Origin: a virus
Direction: 5' to 3' (one strand)
Virus record (IMG/VR): IMGVR_UViG_3300030616_000016
Coordinates: 70,561-134,560 of that record
DNA length: 64,000 nucleotides
The notes beneath the pieces are model-generated. The model was not told the origin of the DNA. It saw only the letters and a program-made list of their open reading frames with translations, and did no database searches. Both the position numbers and the translations under genes were made by a program. Within the stretch, counting starts at the first letter, position 1. The number at the start of each line of letters is the position of its first letter. Below are positions 1 to 45,196 of this stretch, one piece after another.

Positions 1-576
1 CTTTGTTCTACCTTTAACAAGGAAGAAGATGTCATTGGGCTTATCAAAACCTATAGATCAAACGATAGCTCGCGTGAAACTAATGTTGTCAGAACGGTGT
101 TATCTGAATGGAAGAAGAGCCTAAACATTCCAGATGCTTGTAGTTTCTGTGGAGTTCATTCTATTCTCTCCGAGTCCCAGATGGTAGCGTTGCTAGACAC
201 TATTGATTTATATGTGTGTACTTCTCGGGGAGAAGGAATGTCAGGCCCATTAATTCATGCTATGGCAATGGGAAAGCCTGTTATTTCTTCTGACTTTAGT
301 GCTATGAGTGACTTTATTTATGGCGATACATCTTTAAAGGTTGTTCGATACTGTCTAGAACCTGTTCATTCTATGTCACACATACCTTGGTATGGTCATA
401 GACAAGACTGGGCTAGACTAAACGTTTCTGATATTAGGGAAGGAATGCGTGAAGGATATGAATTATGGAGAGATGACAGAGATAGATTTGAAGAGATTGG
501 ACAGCGTGGAAGGGATTTTGTCAGAAAGATCTACTCTGACGAAGCAGTCCAGAAACGAATTAAGGAACTTATCTGA
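1..576 (+). CDS. Glycosyltransferase (GT-B, group-1-like), C-terminal part; 5' end outside window
   Basis: Frame is open from base 1 to the stop at 574-576. LYVCTSRGEGMSGPLIHAMAMGKPVISSDF resembles the conserved GT1 donor-binding region. Confidence 0.65.
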   Translation, partial: LCSTFNKEEDVIGLIKTYRSNDSSRETNVVRTVLSEWKKSLNIPDACSFCGVHSILSESQMVALLDTIDLYVCTSRGEGMSGPLIHAMAMGKPVISSDFSAMSDFIYGDTSLKVVRYCLEPVHSMSHIPWYGHRQDWARLNVSDIREGMREGYELWRDDRDRFEEIGQRGRDFVRKIYSDEAVQKRIKELI

Positions 577-877: not shown

Positions 878-2026
878 TTAGAACGAGTCAGCGCTTTCCT
901 TTTCTCTAACTGCTCTTTTTATTTGACTACTTAGTCTTGCGTGTGATTGCTTTTCTTTTGCTATGTCTTCTAATATTTCTATATCTTTACTGCTTAACAA
1001 CTTTCTTACTCTGATAATATCAAGGTGAGCAGCATATGATAGAGTTGCAAACAATGTTTCCAACTCCTTTTTATCACATTCATAATTCATGACTTTATGG
1101 ATCCACCCTTTATATTGCTTATATTTTTTGGATCCTATTCCACTAATTCTTCTTGCCATTGTTCTACGACTTATGTCAACTCCAAATACAACACCCAATG
1201 CACTTATTCTATTTATACCGCTTAACATAACTTTTGACTTATGTTTATTAAATCTCATTCCTTCTACTGCTACGGCCTTATTTGCGCACTTGAAAATATC
1301 ATTTATCCATTCTTTCCAGAATCTTTTAGATATGTAAGGCATAGAGCTACTTAGTTGTATGTCGTCAGCATATCTTGAATATCTGATCCTTCCATATGGC
1401 CAACCCATGCTTGACATTGTTATATCAAACTTTCTCATACATAGATTTGATATTACAGGACTTGATGGAGCACCTTGTGGTAATCCATTTGTCATTGAAA
1501 CAAGAGGTATTAATGGTATCTTATATTTTCTGCAGCATGTATCTACAGTATGTAATGATATAAGCATCTTTCTAATATGTTTTGCTTTAATAGATGGAAA
1601 GAAGTTCTTAATATCCATACTAATCATTATTCTAGCTCCATCATGTATCGACTGTAATTTGTTAATTGCAGTTTGGAAGCGTCTAGAACGTCTTAGTATT
1701 CTTCTAAAAGATTCTTGTGTTGTAAACAGCGGTTTTGGACTATATGCTAAGCTATGTCCATTTCTGTCATACTTTTGCAATAGCCATGAGACATATCTTT
1801 GTGCCGTTTTTAAGTCTTCGTCTGGCTCATGTAAATGCCTGATGCCACCTGATCTTTTTCTTATCATGTGGTGTGTATATCTTGAGTCTCTATCGTTTGA
1901 GTTTTGTTGTAAGTCTTCAAACAATTGCTGAATTGTAATACCAGATGGCAAGACTAGACTTAGAAAATTGTCAGGAGTTATATCATGAAGTCTCAGTTTC
2001 TTCTTTATCTGATTCTGTTCCATCAT
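878..2026 (-). CDS. Reverse transcriptase, retron/Abi-type (bacterial group-II-related RT)
   Basis: SGGIRHLHEPDEDLKTAQ; MDIKNFFPSI; GLPQGAPSSPVISNL; YSRYADDIQL (YADD catalytic box). The NFFPSI and LPQGAPxSPxxSN pattern is typical of retron-like RTs. The DGR-type I/LGxxxSQ motif is absent. Confidence 0.8.
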   Translation of the reverse strand: MMEQNQIKKKLRLHDITPDNFLSLVLPSGITIQQLFEDLQQNSNDRDSRYTHHMIRKRSGGIRHLHEPDEDLKTAQRYVSWLLQKYDRNGHSLAYSPKPLFTTQESFRRILRRSRRFQTAINKLQSIHDGARIMISMDIKNFFPSIKAKHIRKMLISLHTVDTCCRKYKIPLIPLVSMTNGLPQGAPSSPVISNLCMRKFDITMSSMGWPYGRIRYSRYADDIQLSSSMPYISKRFWKEWINDIFKCANKAVAVEGMRFNKHKSKVMLSGINRISALGVVFGVDISRRTMARRISGIGSKKYKQYKGWIHKVMNYECDKKELETLFATLSYAAHLDIIRVRKLLSSKDIEILEDIAKEKQSHARLSSQIKRAVREKESADSF

Positions 2027-3107
2027 CTCCGCCTTCCGATTCCGTATTGTCAGATATTAATTTGGTTATATCATTGTTTGCTGCAAATTCATATAGTGCT
2101 ATTATTCCTTGCACGCTTTCTTCGCCTATGTAGTAGTATCCACCACGCTTGGTGATTTTACCATCTACAATCATTTGATCTACTAAAAATCTTTCTTCAC
2201 TAAACCCATGATTAAAGATGAATGGATATTTTACTTCGGCTCCCTCCGGCATAGTACCAGACTGTCTAGTCTTATTGATTTTCATGTAATGCATGAAGCC
2301 AATAATTTTCTCTTTCTTCTTTCCATCTTCTTCTACAATGGCAGCTGGAGCTTCGCTTTTGCTACCTCTACGAGTCATCAGCCTTACGTGTGTAAAATGC
2401 TTAACCGCATTTCCTCCCTTAACGAGAGTTAGGTCACCATATCCACCAATATTGGTGTATATTTGACCAATCATTATGATTGTTGTGTTTGTCTTTGCTG
2501 CAGGACCACAAGCAAGTCTTAGGAACTGGCTCATTTTTCTTTGAAGAACACCGATGGTATCATCGTTTAGGCTACGGTTAGTACCGGTTTTACTTTCGAG
2601 TTCTGCGCGTGGAAGCAGACCGCCAATTGAATCAATAACTACGATGTCTACTAAATTCTCTCTCATAATGTCGAGACATTTATCTAGCATGTTCTCCATC
2701 GTATCTTTCTCAATTATAAAGAGCTCATCTGTATTGACTCCTTGTACTTTTAACCACTCTTTATCCAATGCTTCTTCTGCATCAACCCAGCATGCAATAC
2801 CATGGTTTTTCTGAACTTCTGCTACACATCTTGCACATGCAGTGCCTTTAGCTGTCTGTTCTGGTCCGGCGATTGTAACAATTTTACCTCTAGGAAAACC
2901 TCCGCCTAAATAGTCATCCCAGCCTTTAATGCCGGTTGATATTCTACCGTAATCCTCTAGTCCAAAATGTACAATTTGATTTTCATCATCGATGTCTTTG
3001 TTAATAGAAGTCGCTACTCTTTTTAGACGAGCCATCTTCTCTGCTTTTATATCTTGTGGAGATACAATCTTTTCTTCACTAGTATCTTTGCTTTTTCTCT
3101 TAGCCAT
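1983..3107 (-). CDS. recA: RecA-family recombinase
   Basis: Collinear with RecA: GGGFPRGKIVTIAGPEQTAKGT..., CWVDAEEALD, VVIDSIGGLLPRAELE, GGNAVKHFTHVRL. The 3' end overlaps the RT start by 44 nt. Confidence 0.85.
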   Translation of the reverse strand: MAKRKSKDTSEEKIVSPQDIKAEKMARLKRVATSINKDIDDENQIVHFGLEDYGRISTGIKGWDDYLGGGFPRGKIVTIAGPEQTAKGTACARCVAEVQKNHGIACWVDAEEALDKEWLKVQGVNTDELFIIEKDTMENMLDKCLDIMRENLVDIVVIDSIGGLLPRAELESKTGTNRSLNDDTIGVLQRKMSQFLRLACGPAAKTNTTIIMIGQIYTNIGGYGDLTLVKGGNAVKHFTHVRLMTRRGSKSEAPAAIVEEDGKKKEKIIGFMHYMKINKTRQSGTMPEGAEVKYPFIFNHGFSEERFLVDQMIVDGKITKRGGYYYIGEESVQGIIALYEFAANNDITKLISDNTESEGGDDGTESDKEETETS

Positions 3108-3110
3108 GTG

Positions 3111-3287
3111 TTATTCTTCCAAACAAGTTTTACAGATTAAATTCCCAACGTCATCATGACTGCTACAATCTAAACAGATTGTTTTGCCACATGAACTACA
3201 TGATCCTAGATATGTGTCGGCCATAGTTTCCATAAACATTTGGTCGCATATTTCACAGTAGTTATCATTATCGTTGTTGTCACTCAT
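3111..3287 (-). CDS. Small zinc-ribbon protein (58 aa), not in ORF track
   Basis: Hand translation: MSDNNDNDNYCEICDQMF...GSCSSCGKTICLDCSSHDDVGNLICKTCLEE. The ATG overlaps the stop of the upstream gene (ATGAGTGA). Confidence 0.4.
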   Translation of the reverse strand: MSDNNDNDNYCEICDQMFMETMADTYLGSCSSCGKTICLDCSSHDDVGNLICKTCLEE

Positions 3288-3651
3288 TATCTATGCCCTG
3301 CATTAAATATAGTAAATGATCTAGCTTCAAAGTAACAAGAGTGGTTTCATTACTAGGCTTAGCACTTCCTGAAGTACATAAGATAGGAAATCTACCAGTA
3401 TTTCTTGCTTCGCCTATCAATTTCTTCCAATCTGATTTTGATGGCATAAATATTCCATCTTTATTTGTTCTTTGTTTAGCTTCGATCTGTAATAATCGGT
3501 TTTGTATATCGCTATCAGATGCAAATACATTTCCAGAGCCTGCTGTTTCTCTTAAAGATATACCATATTGCTGTGCTCTTTCAACAATGTATCGTTGCAT
3601 TAATGCAGCGTTTTTATTCCTTCCGCCAACTCTTGACATAGGAATCTCCAT
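3280..3651 (-). CDS. PD-(D/E)XK nuclease, Holliday-junction-resolvase-like (Hjc-type pattern)
   Basis: ETAGSGNVFASDSDIQ...LLQIEAKQR gives a GSG...D...E-x-K arrangement like archaeal-type resolvases. Sits beside recA. Confidence 0.5.
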   Translation of the reverse strand: MEIPMSRVGGRNKNAALMQRYIVERAQQYGISLRETAGSGNVFASDSDIQNRLLQIEAKQRTNKDGIFMPSKSDWKKLIGEARNTGRFPILCTSGSAKPSNETTLVTLKLDHLLYLMQGIDNE

Positions 3652-10939: not shown

Positions 10940-11608
10940 TCAACTACAAGGCCACACTAGCCTGTAGTCCGCTGACCCTTTTAGAAACATTAATTCATCC
11001 ATAGATAAATTATGTTCATTTGCAACTATAAATCCTATGTTTCCGTAGTCATCGAATCTCATAAGAGATATAAAGTTTTCTATTCCGAACCTATTTTTTG
11101 ATTCGTTTCCACAATAAACGCAATTTGGAAATCCGTATAGCATTTTAGAACCACATAGACCACACTCTTCTTTAGACTCCAGTTTGTAAACTCTTAGTTC
11201 TTTTAGTATTCTTTCATTAATCATAAACGATTGTTGCCCAAGTTTTACCTCTGTACGTTCATGCAAATCTACAAGAGCATCAAATGGAATTCGATTGATC
11301 CAGTAATTTAATGGTCTTAAGCTAGCTGTTCTATTTCTATATATAAGTAAGTTAACTAGTATTTTGTCTGCACATATGGGAGAGCCTTCTTTAAAAATAT
11401 ATCCCATAATTTTATTAGTTCCAATAACATTTCTAGAGCTTCCAATTTCTGGCACTGCTAATGTTAAGCGATTTGGGCTTAGGACTATATCCCATTTCTT
11501 TGATAAATCTTGAGGCTCGTCTGGGTTGTGAGGAGTTATATGCGCCAGCTTTTCTTCTATAGCTCCACGAAATATTGAGCTTTTTCTTCGCTCTAGACAT
11601 TGCGACAT
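10940..11608 (-). CDS. Zinc-ribbon protein (start 11608 or 11407)
   Basis: CGLCGSKMLYGFPNCVYCGN. The ATG at 11608 has a strong AAAGGAGA RBS but lies inside the UvrD 3' end. An alternative ATG at 11407 has no RBS. Confidence 0.5.
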   Translation of the reverse strand: MSQCLERRKSSIFRGAIEEKLAHITPHNPDEPQDLSKKWDIVLSPNRLTLAVPEIGSSRNVIGTNKIMGYIFKEGSPICADKILVNLLIYRNRTASLRPLNYWINRIPFDALVDLHERTEVKLGQQSFMINERILKELRVYKLESKEECGLCGSKMLYGFPNCVYCGNESKNRFGIENFISLMRFDDYGNIGFIVANEHNLSMDELMFLKGSADYRLVWPCS

Positions 11609-13175
11609 ATACAACTCTCCTTTCGGACTCTATTTCGTCTTCTTCTACCATTGTGCATGGATAGTATCCTTCTTCCATCCCGCACATATAAACAATATCA
11701 AACTCAAGTCCCTTTACTCCGTGAACAGTAGCTATAGTCACATCTCCTGCATCGTTATCTGAGTTGCTTGTAAGTTTGATCTTATTTACTAGGTCAATCA
11801 TTGAGTCACAAGAGTCAGACATATAATCTATAATTTCATATAAGGATATCTGATACTTACTCTCGTCCATTTCATCAAGGAGTTTACAAGCATCTTTGAC
11901 TCCTTGCATATCATTGTTTAGGATCTTGTCTATTATCTCTACTATGTCCTCATTATCAACAAGAATTTTAGATTTTTCTTGGCTATTTTCTCTGTTAATA
12001 AATTGGTTAAGAAATCGTTTGCCTAATCCTCTTTTCAAGTATGCAAGAAATTGTGAGGTTCTTTCTATATTGATTCCGTCTTCTTTATTAATAGGATGAA
12101 GCCCACATATAAGATCAATAAGTCTTTTTGTCTTACCTCTTTCTGATAGTGACAGTCCACCTATTCTAGTATATGGTATAGCACGTTGATCAAAATATAT
12201 AGCTACAGTATCTAGTTGTCTATGTGTACGACCTAATATAGCCACTGAATTGCCAGCTTCCATATATCTTTGTATGTCTCGTGCCAAAAACTGATTCTCA
12301 TCAGATTCTGAGTTGAATGGATAGAAATCAACATTAGGTATACTAGCTTCTTCTGCAGTAATTTCACTGCTATAAGTATCTGCATTGCAGGATATTAGTT
12401 TATTACAATATCCAGCAATATGATTGTCAAATCTCCATGTATATGATAATGGAAGTACTTTGGCGCCTGATTCTTTTATGAGCATTTCTGTATTTTCGTA
12501 ACATGCACCACGAAATTGGTACAAGCACTGATTTTGGTCGCCTACTACTGTGAATCCTCTGTTAAAATCATACGTAAGTTCTTTAACCATATTGTATTGA
12601 ACAGTGTTGGTATCTTGCCATTCATCCACAATAATTCCATCGCAACCTACGTCTCTCATATATTCTATGGAGTCGTAAAGAAGATCACTGAAGTCTTTGA
12701 CATGGTTCTTTAGCTTGGTAGTTTTGTATATCTTAGCGAGAGAATCTAAGCTGTCTTGTACTGACAGATTATTTACTTCTACATTATTTTGAAGCTTAAT
12801 CTTTGCAGCTTCAAGTAAAAGCTTATAGATATCACTGTCAGGAGAGTATCCCATTTTCTTTATACAGCTTCTTATCAACTCTGTAGATTCGTTCTGGTCA
12901 ATAATCTCGAATTCTTGTTTGTTATTCTTGAGGAGTTGTAAGCCCAAGCCATGGAATGTTCCAATGAAAACAGCATTGTTCCCAGTTAGTCTACTTGTAA
13001 GTTCTTTTGCTGCCTTATTAGTAAATGTAATAGCAACGAACTTGTAATCTATATCAGCAACACCATAAGCTAATGTGGTTGTTTTGCCACTGCCAGGCGC
13101 AGCCATAACTACGTTTTTGTTGGCTGGGTCTTTCATATGCAAGATAATTGCTTGCTGTTCTTCAGTTGGATTCAT
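11433..13175 (-). CDS. UvrD/Rep/PcrA-family SF1 DNA helicase
   Basis: AAPGSGKTTTL (Walker A), TFHGLG, IIVDEWQDTN, VGDQNQCLYQFRGA, TVHGVKGLEFD, VYVAMSRAKKKL. The likely start is MNPTEEQQ at 13175; the track ORF extends to 13301. Confidence 0.85.
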   Translation of the reverse strand: MNPTEEQQAIILHMKDPANKNVVMAAPGSGKTTTLAYGVADIDYKFVAITFTNKAAKELTSRLTGNNAVFIGTFHGLGLQLLKNNKQEFEIIDQNESTELIRSCIKKMGYSPDSDIYKLLLEAAKIKLQNNVEVNNLSVQDSLDSLAKIYKTTKLKNHVKDFSDLLYDSIEYMRDVGCDGIIVDEWQDTNTVQYNMVKELTYDFNRGFTVVGDQNQCLYQFRGACYENTEMLIKESGAKVLPLSYTWRFDNHIAGYCNKLISCNADTYSSEITAEEASIPNVDFYPFNSESDENQFLARDIQRYMEAGNSVAILGRTHRQLDTVAIYFDQRAIPYTRIGGLSLSERGKTKRLIDLICGLHPINKEDGINIERTSQFLAYLKRGLGKRFLNQFINRENSQEKSKILVDNEDIVEIIDKILNNDMQGVKDACKLLDEMDESKYQISLYEIIDYMSDSCDSMIDLVNKIKLTSNSDNDAGDVTIATVHGVKGLEFDIVYMCGMEEGYYPCTMVEEDEIESERRVVYVAMSRAKKKLNISWSYRRKAGAYNSSQPRRASRFIKEMGYSPKPKSLNISSARNWKL

Positions 13176-13179
13176 ATTA

Positions 13180-13389
13180 TTAGTCTGTTGTAGTGTTAAG
13201 GTGGTATTCAATCTCATCAGTAATGGATTTGGTGTCTTTATGCAGCGTTTGTTCTCCCTTAATACTGAGTTTGTACTTATTTCTTTTCTTTGGATCTGCA
13301 TATTTTGTTATAGAGATGCTTATGCGTTCATCTTTCTTTTGTGCTTGTTCTTGCGGCTGTTGTGTTTGTTCTGTTACATCACCTGGCAT
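13180..13389 (-). CDS. Small Lys/Gln-rich hypothetical protein
   Basis: MPGDVTEQTQQPQEQAQKK... with GGAG before the ATG at 13389. Confidence 0.4.
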   Translation of the reverse strand: MPGDVTEQTQQPQEQAQKKDERISISITKYADPKKRNKYKLSIKGEQTLHKDTKSITDEIEYHLNTTTD

Positions 13390-14087
13390 TTTAATATATC
13401 TCCTAATTTGTCTAGGTCTGATAAAAGATCCCATTGTTTAAACATATGAAGGTCATTTATTAGTATTTTTTTACCACAGTAATAACATTCTGTAAAGTAT
13501 TCTGTGTGTGGACCAATTAATTTGTAGCGCAATATACCATCATTAAATAAATTATATGAAGCACATGAAGGACATAGGTATGGAATTAGTGCTAACATTG
13601 TTGATAGTATATTACCACGTTTTATACGAGCTGGATTTGATTTGTATATTGTTGTAAAACCAACTACTGAATTTAATAATGATCGAGACATAGCCCCAGA
13701 TGAATTTCTTCTTAATTCTTCTAGTATTGCTGTTTTTGAGTTTATTACTATGCGTTGACATGCAATACTAATACGTTGAACAGAATCATAATGCATATAA
13801 TCTGGATATATAGGTGGTATCTTTATCTCTGACATAGTTCCAATCATTTGTTCAATGATAGGTGTAACTGACCAGTTATACAAATCTCTTCCTACTAAAG
13901 AGCATCTTGTTATAGCACATGGAGGAACATATACATGTTTTTGATAACCGGGCGACAAATTATTAGTCATAGCTTTTGTAATGTCAGCATATGATACAGT
14001 AGGCACTGTCCATTTAGGGAGTATAGTGTTTTTAAGTTCTAGTGTGGAACAGATTGCTTTATTAAGACAGTTTATACATGGATGCAT
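13374..14087 (-). CDS. Cys-rich protein (multiple CxxC pairs)
   Basis: MHPCINCLNKAIC..., CPSCASYN...CYYCGKK. Lies between the E1 and Ubl genes. Confidence 0.5.
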   Translation of the reverse strand: MHPCINCLNKAICSTLELKNTILPKWTVPTVSYADITKAMTNNLSPGYQKHVYVPPCAITRCSLVGRDLYNWSVTPIIEQMIGTMSEIKIPPIYPDYMHYDSVQRISIACQRIVINSKTAILEELRRNSSGAMSRSLLNSVVGFTTIYKSNPARIKRGNILSTMLALIPYLCPSCASYNLFNDGILRYKLIGPHTEYFTECYYCGKKILINDLHMFKQWDLLSDLDKLGDILKCQVM

Positions 14088-21865: not shown

Positions 21866-23164
21866 GTGACATTACCCCACGCCTAAAGGCGGGGGCTTCC
21901 TAATTCATCGAAAATTGCGTTCCATACTGGCTACGTCTTACATCTTCTCCAAAGGCTTTAGGTTCCCCTTGCCCAGGGGTACAAAATGCAAAATTCAAAA
22001 TATTACTAGATGCAAGGGCATCTCTATCGTGTTTGGCACCACAAGTGCAAGTCCAATATCTGTCACTTAGCTTAAGATTATTATTTATAGCGCCGCACTG
22101 GTTACACATCTTGCTGGATGGTTCAAATCTTCCTATAGTCAAAACATGCTTTCCATACCAACCTGCCTTATACTCAAGAAAGGTACGAAAAGTATACCAT
22201 CCAACATCAGAGATAGCCTTGGCCAAACAATGATTCTTCACCATTCCAGAAACGTTTAAATCCTCAAGACACACTGCTTGGTTCTCGTCAATGAGCCTTT
22301 TGGACAATTTATGCAAAAAATCTTTACGTTGATTAGAAATCTTCTCATGTATCAACGCTACCTTCCTACGAGCCTTGTTTCTATTTGAAGAACCTTTCTT
22401 CTTCTTTGATAATTGTTTTTGCTTTCTTGCCAATCTTCTTTCAAGTTTCTTTAGGTATCTTGGATTATCTATTTTCTCGCCTGTTGATAGTGTTGCAAAA
22501 TGTTTTAATCCAACGTCAACACCTACACTATTATCTCGTTCAGGATTACATTTGATAGGTAATTCTTCTCCATTGTCAACCAAAATAGAAGCAAAGTATT
22601 TCCCAGAAGGAGCCATGAATATAGTTACAGTTTTAATATTGCCTTCAAATTGTCTATGGAATTTGCATTTGATGCCATCACGGAATTTCATTACATATAG
22701 CCTATTATTATCAAAATCCACATTACTTCCTTGTGGAAATTGACAAGATTGCTTTTTGAATTTCTTCTTAAATTGAGGATATCTTGCCTGTTTCTTAAAA
22801 AACCGCCGGAAAGCATTGTCAAGGTTTCTAAAGGCCATTTGCAAAGATTGACTATTAACTTCCTTCAGCCAACCATGCTCAGATTTCATATGTTTCAATT
22901 GCTTTATCAAATCAAAACAGGAAGGAGATTTCCCCGTTTTTTGATAAGACTCTGTTTTCTTTTGGAGTCCCAAATTGTATATGAACCGTACACAACCAAA
23001 ATGCTTCACAAGAAGCTCCTGTTGTTTTTTGTTGGGGTATATTTTGTATTTATATGCTCGTATCATTATATTTATAGTATAGCACAGGTTTCTGTAAATG
23101 TCAAGAGAAAAACGCATTCTTATATCCCCATGGCTAAAGCCAGGGGTCTTACGAATGCACCTTG
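21866..23164 (-). mobile_element. IS200/IS605-family element carrying tnpB only (IS1341-like), 1.3 kb
   Basis: The ends are defined by comparison with copies at 33637-33883 and 62734-62781. The left end (LE) starts CAAGGTGCATTCGTAAGACCCCTGGCTTTAGCCATGGGG immediately after TTAT. The right end (RE) finishes CCCCCGCCTTTAGGCGTGGGGTAATGTCAC. Both ends have subterminal imperfect hairpins. No tnpA is present. Confidence 0.8.
21900..23066 (-). CDS. tnpB: TnpB (OrfB) RNA-guided-nuclease-family protein
   Basis: MIRAYKYKIYPNKKQQELL, GVDVGLKHFATLSTGEKIDNP (RuvC-I Asp), VCLEDLNV (RuvC-II Glu), CNQCG...CTCG (zinc finger), HDRDALASSNI (RuvC-III Asp). Confidence 0.9.
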   Translation of the reverse strand: MIRAYKYKIYPNKKQQELLVKHFGCVRFIYNLGLQKKTESYQKTGKSPSCFDLIKQLKHMKSEHGWLKEVNSQSLQMAFRNLDNAFRRFFKKQARYPQFKKKFKKQSCQFPQGSNVDFDNNRLYVMKFRDGIKCKFHRQFEGNIKTVTIFMAPSGKYFASILVDNGEELPIKCNPERDNSVGVDVGLKHFATLSTGEKIDNPRYLKKLERRLARKQKQLSKKKKGSSNRNKARRKVALIHEKISNQRKDFLHKLSKRLIDENQAVCLEDLNVSGMVKNHCLAKAISDVGWYTFRTFLEYKAGWYGKHVLTIGRFEPSSKMCNQCGAINNNLKLSDRYWTCTCGAKHDRDALASSNILNFAFCTPGQGEPKAFGEDVRRSQYGTQFSMN

Positions 23165-33887: not shown

Positions 33888-35558
33888 TTAGTTTATAAGG
33901 CAAAACAGATACTTCTGAATTCTGTCACTGCCTGTTGCATATTCGTCTATCAGGCGATATAAGAGCTTGTCCCAGCCTTTAGATAGCATCAACTGCATTA
34001 CAGTGATGTATATCCTTGTTCCAGACCTCTTACCACTATTTGCATATATTCCATCATCAGATAGCTTACGACTGCATGCATGAGTATTTGTCTGGTGGCT
34101 GAACTTATCTAATACTATCCAGAACACTTTCCCAGACCATGCCTCAACTGTCTGTCCGTTATAAGTATGCTTTTGTGGCTTGCATTCTTTTATAAGAGCA
34201 GATGGTATATTCCCATCTTCTCCTTCTAGAAAGTGAGGAACGGGCGCCGGCCCTGATTCCTCTGCAATATTATTAAGCATAGCTTCTACTATCTGACCTG
34301 GATTCCTACGCTTTAGAGTTGCAAGAGCGTTGGTTACCACTTCTGCTGGTTTGCCATCTATCTTAGGCATTTGCTCGTCTGGTATAATATTTACTATACC
34401 TTTATTACCGTGACGATTTGTAATTTTGTCGCCACTTCTGAGAATATGAAATCTCTCGTATTCGACAATAAGTTTTGTACAAACTGTGTTTGCTACTTTT
34501 GTTCTTATCTCACTGATATTAGACAGTTTAGCTTCACGCTTGACATGACATTTAAGCGTGATTGTTTCTTCTCCATCAGAATAAGAACCAATTATCTGAT
34601 TTGGTCTTACAATGTCTCCGGCTTTGGCTTCCATCTTTAGGCTTTGTTTGCACCATCCTGGTACTACGAATGTCTGTTTCTCAGGAATGACACATGTCAT
34701 TTTTCTAGCTGCTGACTTACTCATAACAATCTGTTCTTTGTATACACCAGGCATGATTGCATGAACTGTAAGTAAGTGCTTGCCATTAAGATTGTTATCA
34801 TAATCTTCTGGAAACACCATAGGTTTATCTGGACTAACTAGCTTGCTGGAAGCCTTGAAATTAGATGCAGTGGTTCTGCGGCGATTATATTCTGGTACAA
34901 TAAGATTCTTATTGAGTATATCGCAATAAACCCGACCTCTTTTGGTGAAGCATCCAATATCGTTTATTTTGCATTCTTCAGCCATGTACATTGTGCGACC
35001 ACAATTCCCCGATGACTGACTTATACTTGTCCAATCAAGAATGCCTTCTGTATTGAATGGCATAAATTCATCCGTTCGTTCTTGAAATAGCTCTAATGAT
35101 ATTTTGGGTCCATAGTGAGTAGCTATTCCCTTTACGACATGAGATAATCTTGAAGTTTTAAGTAAATTATCGAGCTTCATTTGAGCTGTGGTAGAATCTT
35201 CTTGATGTCCGAACATAAAGAAGTCTGACAGTTGTGTAGCATATGCTTGCTTAATGAATTTAAGAAGAAGCTCGTATGGTGTTGATAAATATGTGTGATT
35301 AATATTCATACATCTGTTATTAAAGATTGGCATTGGATTAAGTGTATAGCATAATTGCCGGCTTATTCCATTTACAGAAAACATACCCTTGTTATCAATC
35401 TTAGGTATATTTAGTTTTACGACTGTTTGCATGCTCTGGGATGCCTCTTTAACAAGCATTTTTGTATGAAATAGGTCATCATATTCTTCTATATGACAGT
35501 CAACAGGCAAACAATTACATATAGGAAACAATCTTGCAAGATGAGACTTATTCATCAT
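33888..35558 (-). CDS. Multisubunit RNA polymerase beta-like subunit, C-terminal fragment
   Basis: RSGDKITNRHGNKGIVNIIPDEQMPKIDGKPAEVVTNALATLKRRNPGQIVEAML is collinear with the RpoB GDK..RHGNKG...DMP...NP...R.N.GQ region. Confidence 0.75.
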   Translation of the reverse strand: MMNKSHLARLFPICNCLPVDCHIEEYDDLFHTKMLVKEASQSMQTVVKLNIPKIDNKGMFSVNGISRQLCYTLNPMPIFNNRCMNINHTYLSTPYELLLKFIKQAYATQLSDFFMFGHQEDSTTAQMKLDNLLKTSRLSHVVKGIATHYGPKISLELFQERTDEFMPFNTEGILDWTSISQSSGNCGRTMYMAEECKINDIGCFTKRGRVYCDILNKNLIVPEYNRRRTTASNFKASSKLVSPDKPMVFPEDYDNNLNGKHLLTVHAIMPGVYKEQIVMSKSAARKMTCVIPEKQTFVVPGWCKQSLKMEAKAGDIVRPNQIIGSYSDGEETITLKCHVKREAKLSNISEIRTKVANTVCTKLIVEYERFHILRSGDKITNRHGNKGIVNIIPDEQMPKIDGKPAEVVTNALATLKRRNPGQIVEAMLNNIAEESGPAPVPHFLEGEDGNIPSALIKECKPQKHTYNGQTVEAWSGKVFWIVLDKFSHQTNTHACSRKLSDDGIYANSGKRSGTRIYITVMQLMLSKGWDKLLYRLIDEYATGSDRIQKYLFCLIN

Positions 35559-43009: not shown

Positions 43010-44020
43010 TTACCAAGGCCAGTTAGGGACCTCGATCTTATGAACATGTTTCAAGTGATCGAATGCATAAGGCTGGAAAGGCGCTTCGACGCCATAATGA
43101 GCACGATAAGCAACTTCCCACCAGTGAGACAGGAATATCTTAGTAGCCCATCTCTTACTTCTCATATGAATCTGACTATTGGGGAGCTTGCCTTCGCGAT
43201 ATATTGCCCTCTGTTTATGACCAGGCACTCTTCGAAGAACTTCTCGTGCAATATGCGCATATTCCTTGGCTTCATTCTTACGCGACTCGATAATCTTCCT
43301 TTCAACAACAAGATGTCCATAGAGATCTTTTGGATTGTTGCATGTCATATTGAAAGACTCACCGATTTTCCAGCAGAGTGTTTTCAGTTCTGAATTCCAG
43401 GGACGCATTGACAGACCTCTGTAAAGCGTCTTGCCTGTATGAACTCCGCCTCCTTTCTGTAATGAGAGACGAAGTGCGGTAGCTGCTTTGATTCCTCCGG
43501 CTTCTTGTATCGCATTTGCTACCTTAATAGCATCTTCTTCAGATACTCTTCTTGTACTATCAGGATTAATACCGGCTTCGTCAACCATGATTTCTCTTGT
43601 AACTTTCTTGCCAAGCCAGCGCTTTCCGTCTACAAGACCAGCATAGCTATAGATATGTCCTGGAGTCTTAGCTTTGTCCATATCTATATGGGCAATAAGA
43701 CCGGCGCTGATAACAGGGCCAATACCTACAACTGATTGAGCCCATGTACCAATTTTTGTTGATAATGAGAAATGATTGAGCGCGAGCTTCACCTGATTCT
43801 CAAGACGCTCCGCATTCTTAAGAAACCAATCAAGCACTTCCATTGGAGGGTCGTCTACGCCCTGCTCTGCTGCTCTAAGCTGACCAGCAAGCCTGATTCT
43901 CTGGTTCTGCATGGTATAATAACTATCTACCAGATAGCGGGCTTCCTGACGCGTAATCTTTCTTGACGCGTTTCTTATGTCTTTACCTACTCTTTCAATA
44001 ATTTCTTCAATAGCCATCAC
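43010..44020 (-). CDS. Protein with IS110/IS116/IS902-type transposase C-terminal (HhH) domain-like region
   Basis: VVGIGPVISAGLIAHIDMDKAKTPGHIYSYAGL resembles the GIGP..A..L.AEI....F......YAGL motif. I could not see the N-terminal DEDD catalytic domain. Confidence 0.4.
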   Translation of the reverse strand: MMAIEEIIERVGKDIRNASRKITRQEARYLVDSYYTMQNQRIRLAGQLRAAEQGVDDPPMEVLDWFLKNAERLENQVKLALNHFSLSTKIGTWAQSVVGIGPVISAGLIAHIDMDKAKTPGHIYSYAGLVDGKRWLGKKVTREIMVDEAGINPDSTRRVSEEDAIKVANAIQEAGGIKAATALRLSLQKGGGVHTGKTLYRGLSMRPWNSELKTLCWKIGESFNMTCNNPKDLYGHLVVERKIIESRKNEAKEYAHIAREVLRRVPGHKQRAIYREGKLPNSQIHMRSKRWATKIFLSHWWEVAYRAHYGVEAPFQPYAFDHLKHVHKIEVPNWPW

Positions 44021-44038: not shown

Positions 44039-45196
44039 TTAAAGCATGTTTACCATGCTATTATATAGACCCGCATACTCTTGCGGGCCTGAACGTTTGC
44101 CTGGGTTATCGGACAATTTAACAGTAGGAACAAAGCCCTCTCTATTATATGAACAGGCAGTCATTTTAATAACGATATTAAGAGGATCTACTCCAACATC
44201 ATTAGTGAAATTAGTGCCTATACCATATACTGTTTTGATTCTTTTGTTTACATATTCTTCTATCTCAAGAACCTTGTCAACATCAAGAGAGTCTGAGAAT
44301 ACAATGGTTTTTGTACTTGGATCTATACCAAGGCTCTCATAGTGTTTTATTATTTTGTCAGCAAATTCCATAGGATCGCCTGAATCTTGCCTTACACCAT
44401 CCCAAAGACTCGCTCTGACATAATCAAATGATCTTAGAAACCAATCAGTTGTATAAGTATCAGTAAGCGCTATGCCTAGTTTGCCCTTATATGTCTCTGC
44501 CCATTTATCAAGGGCAATAGAAGTAGCCATTTGAGGACCAAATATGGCGCCGTGGAACATAAACCACTCATGAGCTTGTGTGCCAATTGGTCGCATGTTA
44601 TGAGTGGTTGCTAATAATACATTACTTGTACCAAGACAGTATTGTGAAATTTGTTTTCTTGTAGACATGTCATCCAGAAGTTCATTCTGTACACCAAATG
44701 AAAATCTGCGTCTGGTTCCGAATTCTATGAAGTTGACTTTGTGCTTGATGAGTTTGTCAACCTTGTCTACATTTGTTTTATATCTTTCTTTCCTGAACTT
44801 AGGCGCTATACCAAGCTTAAGATAGTATAGCTCGCTAATAGCCGCTAATAGCGGTACTTCCCATAGTATAGCAGAATACCATGGCCCGCATATTTCTACT
44901 TTGAGATCTTCGTCTGTTTGTGTAACACATACTTCATTAGGATTGAATCGATGATGTCGTAGGTATTCTAGATATGTTGAATCAAAGACTCCAATCTTTC
45001 GCATAGCTGTAATACTATCGTCTATAAAGTATGTATGTTGCATATGATCAATAAACTCATTTAATTCCTTTTGCATACTTTCAGGGAACTCAGTCTTTGT
45101 TCTTGACTTGAATTCATATTTTACTAATGCAGATGGATAGTGTTTAAGTACTGCATTTTGCATGGCGAACTTATAGAAATCATTGTCTGCTGCCAT
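44039..45196 (-). CDS. pncB: Nicotinate phosphoribosyltransferase
   Basis: NDFYKFAMQNAVLKHYP (TD-x-YK-x-TM region). LGTSNVLLATTHNMRPIGTQAHEWF (GTSN...GT.AH). 385 aa. Confidence 0.75.
   Translation of the reverse strand: MAADNDFYKFAMQNAVLKHYPSALVKYEFKSRTKTEFPESMQKELNEFIDHMQHTYFIDDSITAMRKIGVFDSTYLEYLRHHRFNPNEVCVTQTDEDLKVEICGPWYSAILWEVPLLAAISELYYLKLGIAPKFRKERYKTNVDKVDKLIKHKVNFIEFGTRRRFSFGVQNELLDDMSTRKQISQYCLGTSNVLLATTHNMRPIGTQAHEWFMFHGAIFGPQMATSIALDKWAETYKGKLGIALTDTYTTDWFLRSFDYVRASLWDGVRQDSGDPMEFADKIIKHYESLGIDPSTKTIVFSDSLDVDKVLEIEEYVNKRIKTVYGIGTNFTNDVGVDPLNIVIKMTACSYNREGFVPTVKLSDNPGKRSGPQEYAGLYNSMVNML

Follow-up and report, generated by a model that had tools for sequence, protein, structure and literature searches.

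A 64,000-nt stretch of a viral genome (positions 70,561 to 134,560 of IMG/VR record IMGVR_UViG_3300030616_000016; hereafter the window, numbered from its first letter) encodes a retron-type reverse transcriptase (RT) whose gene directly follows, and overlaps, a recA gene. On balance we favour the reading, drawn from sequence comparison, that this locus is a divergent retron module within a phage recA operon, in which the RT and a cognate RNA would make multicopy single-stranded DNA (msDNA). An earlier sequence-only reading of the same DNA had noticed the enzyme and had remarked that the place where a retron normally carries its msr/msd RNA is occupied here by recA. Our in silico comparison places the 'missing' msr/msd downstream of the RT in the window, and upstream and/or downstream of it in relatives.

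The strings DIKNFFPSIK, GLPQGAPSSPVISN and RYADD were all found in the translation of the RT open reading frame (ORF), and a purine-rich Shine-Dalgarno-like run, GGAAGGCGGAG, lies just 5′ of its ATG. As the sequence-only reading had stated, at its start the RT gene overlaps the final 44 nt of recA, in a different frame (1983-2026). The assignment of the enzyme to the retron type, made from its hallmark strings, was borne out by profiles, by sequence matches in the PDB and by the predicted fold. Pfam RVT_1 matched the RT at 7.6e-20, and NCBIfam retron_St85_RT at 1e-40 (139.8 bits); the best PADLOC model was RT_II-A (1.4e-37), followed by III-A, XIII and I-C, all of them retron RT models. The best PDB sequence match was the Ec86 RT (4.4e-14). 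An AlphaFold (AF2) model with a predicted local distance difference test score (pLDDT) of 88.2 had retron RTs, every one, as its first 11 PDB fold matches, and the sequence and fold matches together included the Ec86, Ec67, type I-A, Eco7 and Ec83 retron RTs. Template modelling (TM) scores, normalised to target length, were 0.73-0.82 against stand-alone retron RTs and 0.38-0.40 against the longer Ec67 fusion chains. The predicted structure has the retron fold, including the C-terminal region that binds msr.

Generic RT motifs are common to several classes of retroelement, and the enzyme might instead be a group II intron maturase, the RT of a diversity-generating retroelement (DGR), or a defence RT of the DRT (defence-associated RT) or Abi (abortive infection) kind. 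The group II RT profile TIGR04416 (61 bits, cutoff 300; 1e-16) and Drt3a (57 bits, cutoff 200; 1.6e-15) indeed matched below threshold, and Drt2 gave 46 bits (3.5e-12). However, retron profiles outscored those for group II and DRT by at least 20 orders of magnitude; for group II RTs the fold matches reached a TM of only ~0.47, against 0.73-0.82 for stand-alone retron RTs, and DRT2, DRT9 and Abi-P2 ranked under all retron RTs. The RT lacks a maturase X domain, an endonuclease domain or any extra fused domain, and Rfam gave no intron or other RNA. A DGR was rejected on separate grounds, as there is no template/variable repeat pair and no second copy of 577-877 anywhere in the 64-kb window. In the comparison with group II, DGR, DRT and Abi profiles that had been proposed earlier, retron profiles thus won widely, and a group II maturase with its intron RNA is excluded. 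We consider membership of any of these other classes highly improbable: by profile and structural model, the enzyme belongs to the retron or retron-like class and is neither a group II, a DGR nor a DRT/Abi enzyme.

Close relatives of the RT are few. In 5.8 billion proteins we found a single close relative (37% identity), and a profile search of these proteins delimited a clade of four members, E falling from 1e-140 to 1e-42 at the next matches, which were ordinary St85-family retron RTs. No close relative of the RT or RecA was present in IMG/VR or JGI metagenome contigs, INPHARED gave no DNA match, and 185,579 species genomes yielded distant retron RTs only, with no relative from the clade. 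In all four lineages (4/4) the RT gene comes immediately after the same RecA homologue, so that the linkage whose conservation the sequence-only reading had proposed to check is indeed kept; none of 84 other retron-type RT loci had a recA gene at a distance of 3 kb or less. Identity among the four is 58-63% for RecA (58-66% with all RecA comparisons counted) and 31-39% for the RT. The genes lie in a common syntenic block of ~20 kb with UvrD, several unknown genes, the resolvase-like and zinc-ribbon proteins, RecA and the RT. Beyond the RT, where contigs reach, there are convergent glycosyltransferases and RuvC, with Pol III alpha in the two longest loci. The contigs range from 35% to about 49% GC.

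On inspection of two of the relatives' loci, L007 and L010, we noted a repeated unit of ~105-200 nt that consists, in order, of a 5′ arm (a1), an unpaired G, hairpin 1, hairpin 2, a purine-rich motif, a variable long hairpin, a linker and a 3′ arm (a2) (Table 1). Hairpin 2 has 7-8 bp, a tetraloop and a G-C pair at the loop; the motif ends in AUG(U), and the linker, usually YUAARG, ends in G. With a covariance model trained on just two L007 units we recovered L010_U2 (E 1e-4) and a unit between recA and the RT gene in L007 (E 1e-3), and a second model recovered L007_U1 (E 0.005) and a unit in the recA-RT spacer of L010 (E 0.014). All of these untrained units were on the RT strand. The same a1/a2 pair is carried by L009. 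When six L007/L010 units were aligned by the model, 97% of cells paired, compared with 67% in shuffles (0/500 reached the observed value) and 30-46% in slid controls, and 13 of 18 pairs were changed on both sides. Among nine units, a G follows a1 in 9/9 and precedes a2 in 9/9, and the closing stem is canonical in 79/81 cells and hairpin 2 in 62/63; the stems hold 131 Watson-Crick pairs, 10 G-U pairs and 3 mismatches. The RNA strand is the RT-sense strand, because the stems contain 10 G-U against 1 A-C. The downstream regions of all four loci also fold better on this strand, and that of L001 is strongly structured (z = -5.2). The msd-like hairpins, meanwhile, are wholly different between units and between lineages. 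Taken together, these comparisons indicate that the L007/L010 units belong to a family of covarying RNA with the architecture of a retron msr/msd, attached to the RT in all relatives.

Downstream of the RT, L007 and L010 carry tandem arrays of 2-4 copies, and the window and L001 one unit each. In the upstream copies of two lineages, a1 includes the recA stop and a2 the RT start; the linker UAAGG and a2 (AGACAUUAU) hold the ribosome-binding site and start codon of the RT. Natural retron ncRNAs (non-coding RNAs) often contain the ribosome-binding site of their RT (10.1101/2024.01.25.577267). The remark that recA occupies the msr/msd position is therefore true of the window, where the unit is downstream, but two sister lineages keep a unit between recA and RT. 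The arrangement is less anomalous than had been thought, because these two lineages have the canonical order of msr/msd then RT and all lineages have downstream copies. In L007, ~500 nt inside the first RNA unit (12480-12940) are 60-70% GC in surroundings of ~47%, extremely structured and without an Rfam match; a 178-aa ORF after the RT in that locus was discarded as an artefact of this GC-rich structured region.

In the window, the ORF for a small helix-turn-helix (HTH) protein that converges on the RT gene (449-712) is conserved, and the true non-coding gap is therefore 713-877. This is the interval, with two hairpins, that had been singled out from the sequence, and both hairpins were confirmed (719-747 and 788-807). 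The 165-nt gap folds with z = -5.4 relative to shuffles, 0/200 of which were as good. We searched both strands of the window (128 kb) with covariance model R1, for which two units from a distant relative were the sole input; its best match was 707-847, at full length, on the RT strand and with the predicted ends. We also ranked the 14 hairpins of the window that have 7 bp, a tetraloop and a G-C loop-closing pair by the motif that accompanies them, using a motif matrix trained on L007/L010 only. The hairpin 2 of the window unit ranked 1/14, at 6.8 bits against 0.8 for the next. The window and L001 units can be aligned by sequence from hairpin 2 onward; across lineages, MAFFT misaligned the units, and the result could not be used for RNAalifold. 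A tRNA search found none. Thus the suggestion that msr/msd elements be sought here was partly rewarded: a1/a2 inverted repeats are present (707-715/839-847), while the Rfam models gave no msr match. We consider 707-847 probably a functional member of the RNA family of the relatives, the membership of the window's own copy being moderately supported by these comparisons.

Several observations weigh against reading the locus as a retron module. The retron_St85_RT score of the window RT is below the curated cutoff of 235 bits, as are those of the three relatives' RTs (168-199 bits). An NAxxH motif in region X and a VTG triplet in region Y are signatures of retron RTs (PMC7736814), and NAxxH-type and (V/I)TG-type motifs were present in 48/48 bacterial retron RT homologues compared, a few with minor variants. 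The window RT and its three relatives have L(K/Q)xxH, not NAxxH, and (A/V)LG, not VTG; they keep only the H and the G, which are the most conserved residues of these motifs. By its sub-cutoff score and replaced signatures the enzyme is an outlier among retron RTs. With respect to the RNA, the R1 score of the window unit was marginal (13.7 bits, E 0.075). Broader models R2 and R3 recovered neither it nor the L001 unit, both of which are AT-rich, and R3 also missed L010_U1. The hairpin and motif criteria were set only after all units had been seen. A descriptor requiring a closing stem of at least 8 bp, a G after a1 and AAG before a2 was non-specific in AT-rich DNA, with 14 matches against ~9 expected per 64 kb. 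Part of the R1 match, and a 30-nt block shared by the window and L007, proved to be C-terminal codons of the HTH gene on the other strand; the block was not counted as RNA evidence because it reflects coding conservation of that gene. Neither at gathering nor at permissive thresholds did Rfam report a retron msr, a group II intron or any other family in the window and the loci. There is no recognisable effector of defence or counter-defence either: PADLOC found nothing for the RecA, zinc-ribbon and resolvase-like proteins, and only weak matches for the HTH protein (E 0.002-0.03; mad1/Csa3/CARF-type models). Finally, the RT-recA adjacency is kept along with the entire gene order and is possibly historical; because the whole ~20-kb order is common to the four lineages, the adjacency is not independent evidence of coupling.

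The weakness of the RNA models raises the possibility that the RT has no dedicated downstream RNA here, the hairpins of 713-877 being a terminator or regulatory element between convergent genes and their likeness to the units coincidental. Bidirectional terminators are expected between convergent genes such as the RT and the HTH/glycosyltransferase pair, a2 overlaps a coding stop codon, and AT-rich sequence offers many chance stems; the R1 match is marginal, and R2 and R3 do not recover the unit. Yet the gap contains no T-run terminator signature and folds far better than shuffles, and the order a1, G, hairpin 1, hairpin 2, motif, long hairpin, G, a2 matches that of eight other units. The first rank of hairpin 2 plus motif and the alignable L001 unit argue in the same direction, and we know of no retron-type RT that functions without a cognate RNA. 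We regard an RT without its own RNA in the window as improbable.

If the locus is a retron module, recA, RT and RNA would be on one transcript. In characterised retrons the RT binds 5′ hairpins, primes at the 2′-OH of the G beside a1 and copies from just 5′ of a2 (PMC7736814). By analogy, the RT would bind the 5′ hairpins and purine-rich motif as an msr-like part, prime on the 2′-OH of the unpaired G beside a1 (window 838), and copy the linker and long hairpin (~718 through 747) into a short hairpin msDNA, one per unit. The complex of msDNA and RT might then bind RecA as a cofactor or regulator, or might serve as a substrate of recombination. The cDNA-plus-recombinase function that the sequence-only reading had suggested would be of this kind, and is likewise inferred from linkage. 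The closest bacterial RT, from Shewanella, has an STM3845-family gene directly upstream that overlaps the RT gene; STM3845 we take to be the Sen2 toxin RcaT. RecA is an ssDNA-binding recombinase. Since such a protein fills the slot of the effector gene of the nearest bacterial retron, our tentative preference is for joint action of the msDNA/RT complex and the phage RecA expressed with it. The module is unlikely to be an abortive-infection system of the classical, toxin-based kind.

The main rival to a RecA-linked role is a stand-alone function in conflict, in which the msDNA would serve as decoy for, or inhibitor of, a host defence or nuclease, or would act against competing phages, and the adjacency to recA would be a frozen accident left by an old insertion. 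Every characterised retron in the literature searched works in phage-host conflict, effector-less (msr-msd)-RT cassettes exist (PMC7736814), and prophages, for example Klebsiella phage 4LV2017 and Pf phages, carry retrons. Two features of the locus fit this proposal well: the RT evolves much faster than RecA (31-39% against 58-63% identity), as conflict genes do, and the msd-like hairpins are wholly divergent across units and lineages. With the entire block syntenic, the linkage is uninformative. The RT is, however, kept in 4/4 lineages at a fixed core replication/recombination site rather than in a variable hotspot, it is tightly packed with recA (stop in a1 and RT start in a2 in two lineages, the 44-nt overlap in the window), and a toxin-like partner gene is absent. 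We judge a purely conflict-related function possible but rather unlikely.

A more specific form of the RecA-linked role, which we think distinctly unlikely, is that of a domesticated retron whose unit-derived ssDNAs are homologous to their own locus, so that RecA would load on them and invade there. Were this true, the resulting D-loops would prime recombination-dependent replication, or RecA filaments would be seeded, with several such primers coming from the tandem arrays in relatives. Retron and recombinase would then be joined in a naturally occurring system, and the retron would serve a purpose other than defence.

Table 1. Features of the RT-recA locus in the window, and RNA units in related phage loci (coordinates of the respective locus)
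Feature	Coordinates	Strand	Basis or remark
RT, 382 aa, retron-type	878-2026	minus	ORF list and profiles; catalytic YADD intact
RecA/UvsX-like recombinase, 374 aa	1983-3107	minus	Pfam, PHROG, TIGR02012
Small protein, 58 aa, four CxxC pairs (zinc-ribbon)	3111-3287	minus	ORF list
Hjc-like (PD-(D/E)xK) Holliday-junction-resolvase-like protein, 123 aa	3280-3651	minus	PHROG 2002 and motif
Small HTH protein, 87 aa	449-712	plus	Conserved ORF, Pfam HTH_23; convergent with RT
Group-1 glycosyltransferase, 3′ part	1-576	plus	Profile matches; convergent, bounds the module
Candidate msr/msd-like ncRNA unit	707-847	minus (RT-sense)	Folds and covariance model R1
Unit: a1	839-847	minus	Fold
Unit: unpaired G after a1	838	minus	Fold
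Unit: hairpin 1	810-832	minus	Fold
Unit: hairpin 2	788-807	minus	Fold
Unit: purine-rich motif UGAUGGGAAUAUGG	774-787	minus	Unit comparison
Unit: hairpin 3	748-776	minus	Fold
Unit: long hairpin, 13 bp, msd-like	719-747	minus	Fold
Unit: linker AAG	716-718	minus	Fold
Unit: a2	707-715	minus	Fold
Outer 14-bp stem, 5′ arm	861-874	minus	Starts 4 nt past RT stop; pairs with 669-682
Outer stem, 3′ arm	669-682	minus	Inside HTH coding region of the other strand
L007, clean tandem units	12978-13177, 13180-13329, 13331-13480		Downstream of RT
L007, larger first unit with GC-rich insert	12304-12972		Downstream of RT
L010, downstream units	1389-1619, 1629-1771		
L007, upstream unit	11020-11161		recA-RT spacer
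L010, upstream unit	263-394		recA-RT spacer
L009, upstream unit	3372-3479		recA-RT spacer

The RecA homologue was matched by Pfam RecA (1.6e-40), PHROG 97 'UvsX-like recombinase' (1.1e-49) and TIGR02012 (9.7e-47, under its equivalog cutoff), and its sequence is predicted to contain the RecA core domain with ATPase motifs. Its Walker A motif (residues 81-89, window ~2840-2870) is GPEQTAKGT rather than the usual GPESSGKTT; this variant, with Ala before the Lys and Gly after it, is invariant in all four phage homologues. After these four, the named best-scoring RecA homologues (36-39% identity) are mostly from bacteria of the candidate phyla radiation (Falkowbacteria, Uhrbacteria, Magasanikbacteria), which may be a pointer to the host or to the origin of the recA gene. 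Of the two genes upstream of recA that the sequence-only reading had described, the zinc-ribbon gene is present with its four CxxC pairs; its Pfam zinc-finger matches are sub-threshold, and a small homologous gene precedes recA in all lineages. The 123-aa gene is also present, its identity as a resolvase being plausible only. 'Resolvase-like' is a plausible name because the product matches PHROG 2002 'Holliday junction resolvase' at 9e-7, yet the match to the Hjc structure 1gef is weak (E 0.27); the protein carries a D...ExK-type string, D48...E57-A-K59.

On the other side of the RT, the HTH ORF and the 3′ end of the glycosyltransferase gene share exactly 128 nt, read in another frame, in the window, L001 and L007. 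Its homologues (~88 aa) lie at 11197-11469 (minus) in L001 and 13477-13743 (minus) in L007. Pfam HTH_23 matched the L001 copy above cutoff (36.4 bits) and the window copy at 21.7 bits. In 2/3 loci the HTH stop codon falls in a2 of the last ncRNA unit or next to it, and in the window it is inside a2. HTH partners occur in some retron types. We also observed a 19-bp near-perfect inverted repeat at 609-666, inside the HTH coding sequence and spanning the codons for KQIAYLLLNGYKPKEICNML. This hairpin and the outer stem (669-682/861-874) are in coding sequence; the relevance of both is doubtful, and the significance of the outer stem uncertain.

The source contig (L002) is 231.6 kb long with its genes all on one strand. 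It encodes phage-type helicases, a UvrD-type helicase, Pol III alpha, RuvC, HU, a phage-type RNA polymerase beta-like protein and TnpB-like proteins; the syntenic L001 also carries a DnaG-DnaB fusion. Contig size and gene content make it probable that the source and its relatives are related jumbo phages, in line with the earlier placement of the locus 'in a phage', while no capsid or terminase gene was identified in the window. Pol III alpha is intact in L001 (15236-18667, 1143 aa) and interrupted in L002 (15538-20260: 893 aa, a 273-aa LAGLIDADG ORF, 391 aa), which suggests an intein or a homing-endonuclease insertion. Two transposase-like ORFs are on the minus strand, at 21900-23117 (PHROG 506, 1.5e-133; TnpB/IS200-605-type) and 43010-44020 (PHROG 4285, 5e-32). 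On the same strand are genes for a phage multisubunit RNA polymerase beta-like protein (33888-35558; PHROG 3295, 2e-14) and a nicotinamide phosphoribosyltransferase-like protein (44039-45196; PHROG 448, 2e-19), both typical large-phage cargo. Rfam family RF03531 ('C. difficile sRNA included into helicase gene') had sub-threshold matches at L002 373-471 and L001 51-150 (39 and 37 bits against a 65-bit cutoff), at the equivalent place in the UvrD-type helicase gene of both phages; these probably reflect conserved helicase coding sequence. The region 5629-11932 of L004, another huge viral contig (IMGVR_UViG_3300045016_000151, 215 kb), encodes a further retron-like RT (RVT_1, 2e-20), with RecA not nearby. 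Its neighbours are a protein of radical-SAM-like type and one of 826 aa in which Major Vault Protein shoulder and Vault_3 domains were matched (9e-27).

Characterised retrons in the literature searched are bacterial anti-phage systems, in which the reverse-transcribed DNA restrains an effector. The putative retron of the window is instead fixed in a core recombination operon of large phages with no known effector, and is set apart also by RecA in the effector slot and by the tandem arrays of template RNA in sister phages. No integrase or lysogeny gene was noticed in these phages, for which no lifestyle test was made. Should msDNA be produced, this would be, as far as we could find, the first retron that such phages keep for their own use, whether in counter-defence or in recombination and replication. 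Full-text literature searches turned up no account of a retron in a lytic or jumbo phage, nor of one linked to RecA.

Among known systems, the locus shares most with type II-A retrons (St85/Sen2; Ec86/Eco1): the best profiles are RT_II-A and retron_St85_RT and the best structure is Ec86; the RT is of similar size without a fused domain; the ncRNA combines short 5′ hairpins with a long 3′ one, and has an a1/a2 stem with a G after a1; and in the nearest bacterial relative a partner gene likewise lies directly upstream and overlaps the RT. It differs from them in its large-phage host, in an upstream partner that is RecA and not of the STM3845/RcaT type, in the replaced NAxxH and VTG motifs, the sub-cutoff score and the lack of an Rfam msr match, and in an ncRNA that is downstream of the RT and multi-copy in relatives. 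With the stand-alone (msr-msd)-RT cassettes of RT clades 2 and 11 (Mestre et al. 2020, PMC7736814) it has in common the absence of a recognisable effector; those are bacterial with the ncRNA upstream, whereas here the setting is a phage recombination operon, with tandem units in relatives.

Retron-type RTs encoded by phages are known from temperate phages and satellites (P2-like hotspots, PMC9122126; the RT of Klebsiella phage 4LV2017), and are 23-30% identical to the window RT. Those retrons are accessory defence cargo in variable prophage hotspots, with effectors, in contrast to the conserved replication/recombination block described here, in which all known relatives have the RT. The uncharacterised RTs of Staphylococcus jumbo phages (PMC10638138) resemble the window RT in being conserved in a jumbo-phage group and in having no DGR features, and are weak homologues (29% identity); the Staphylococcus enzyme is larger (58.9 kDa), with no RecA linkage or ncRNA reported. 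The order of RT then ncRNA in the window is that of engineered operons, where it supports RT-DNA production (10.1101/2024.01.25.577267). The locus, if correctly read, would amount to a compact cassette, found in nature, of RT followed by ncRNA with diversified templates, of interest for retron DNA production and editing. Artificial tools that join a retron to a recombination protein, known as 'recombitrons', use single-strand annealing proteins and a donor-encoding msd; here, by contrast, the pairing would be a natural one, with a RecA-family protein.

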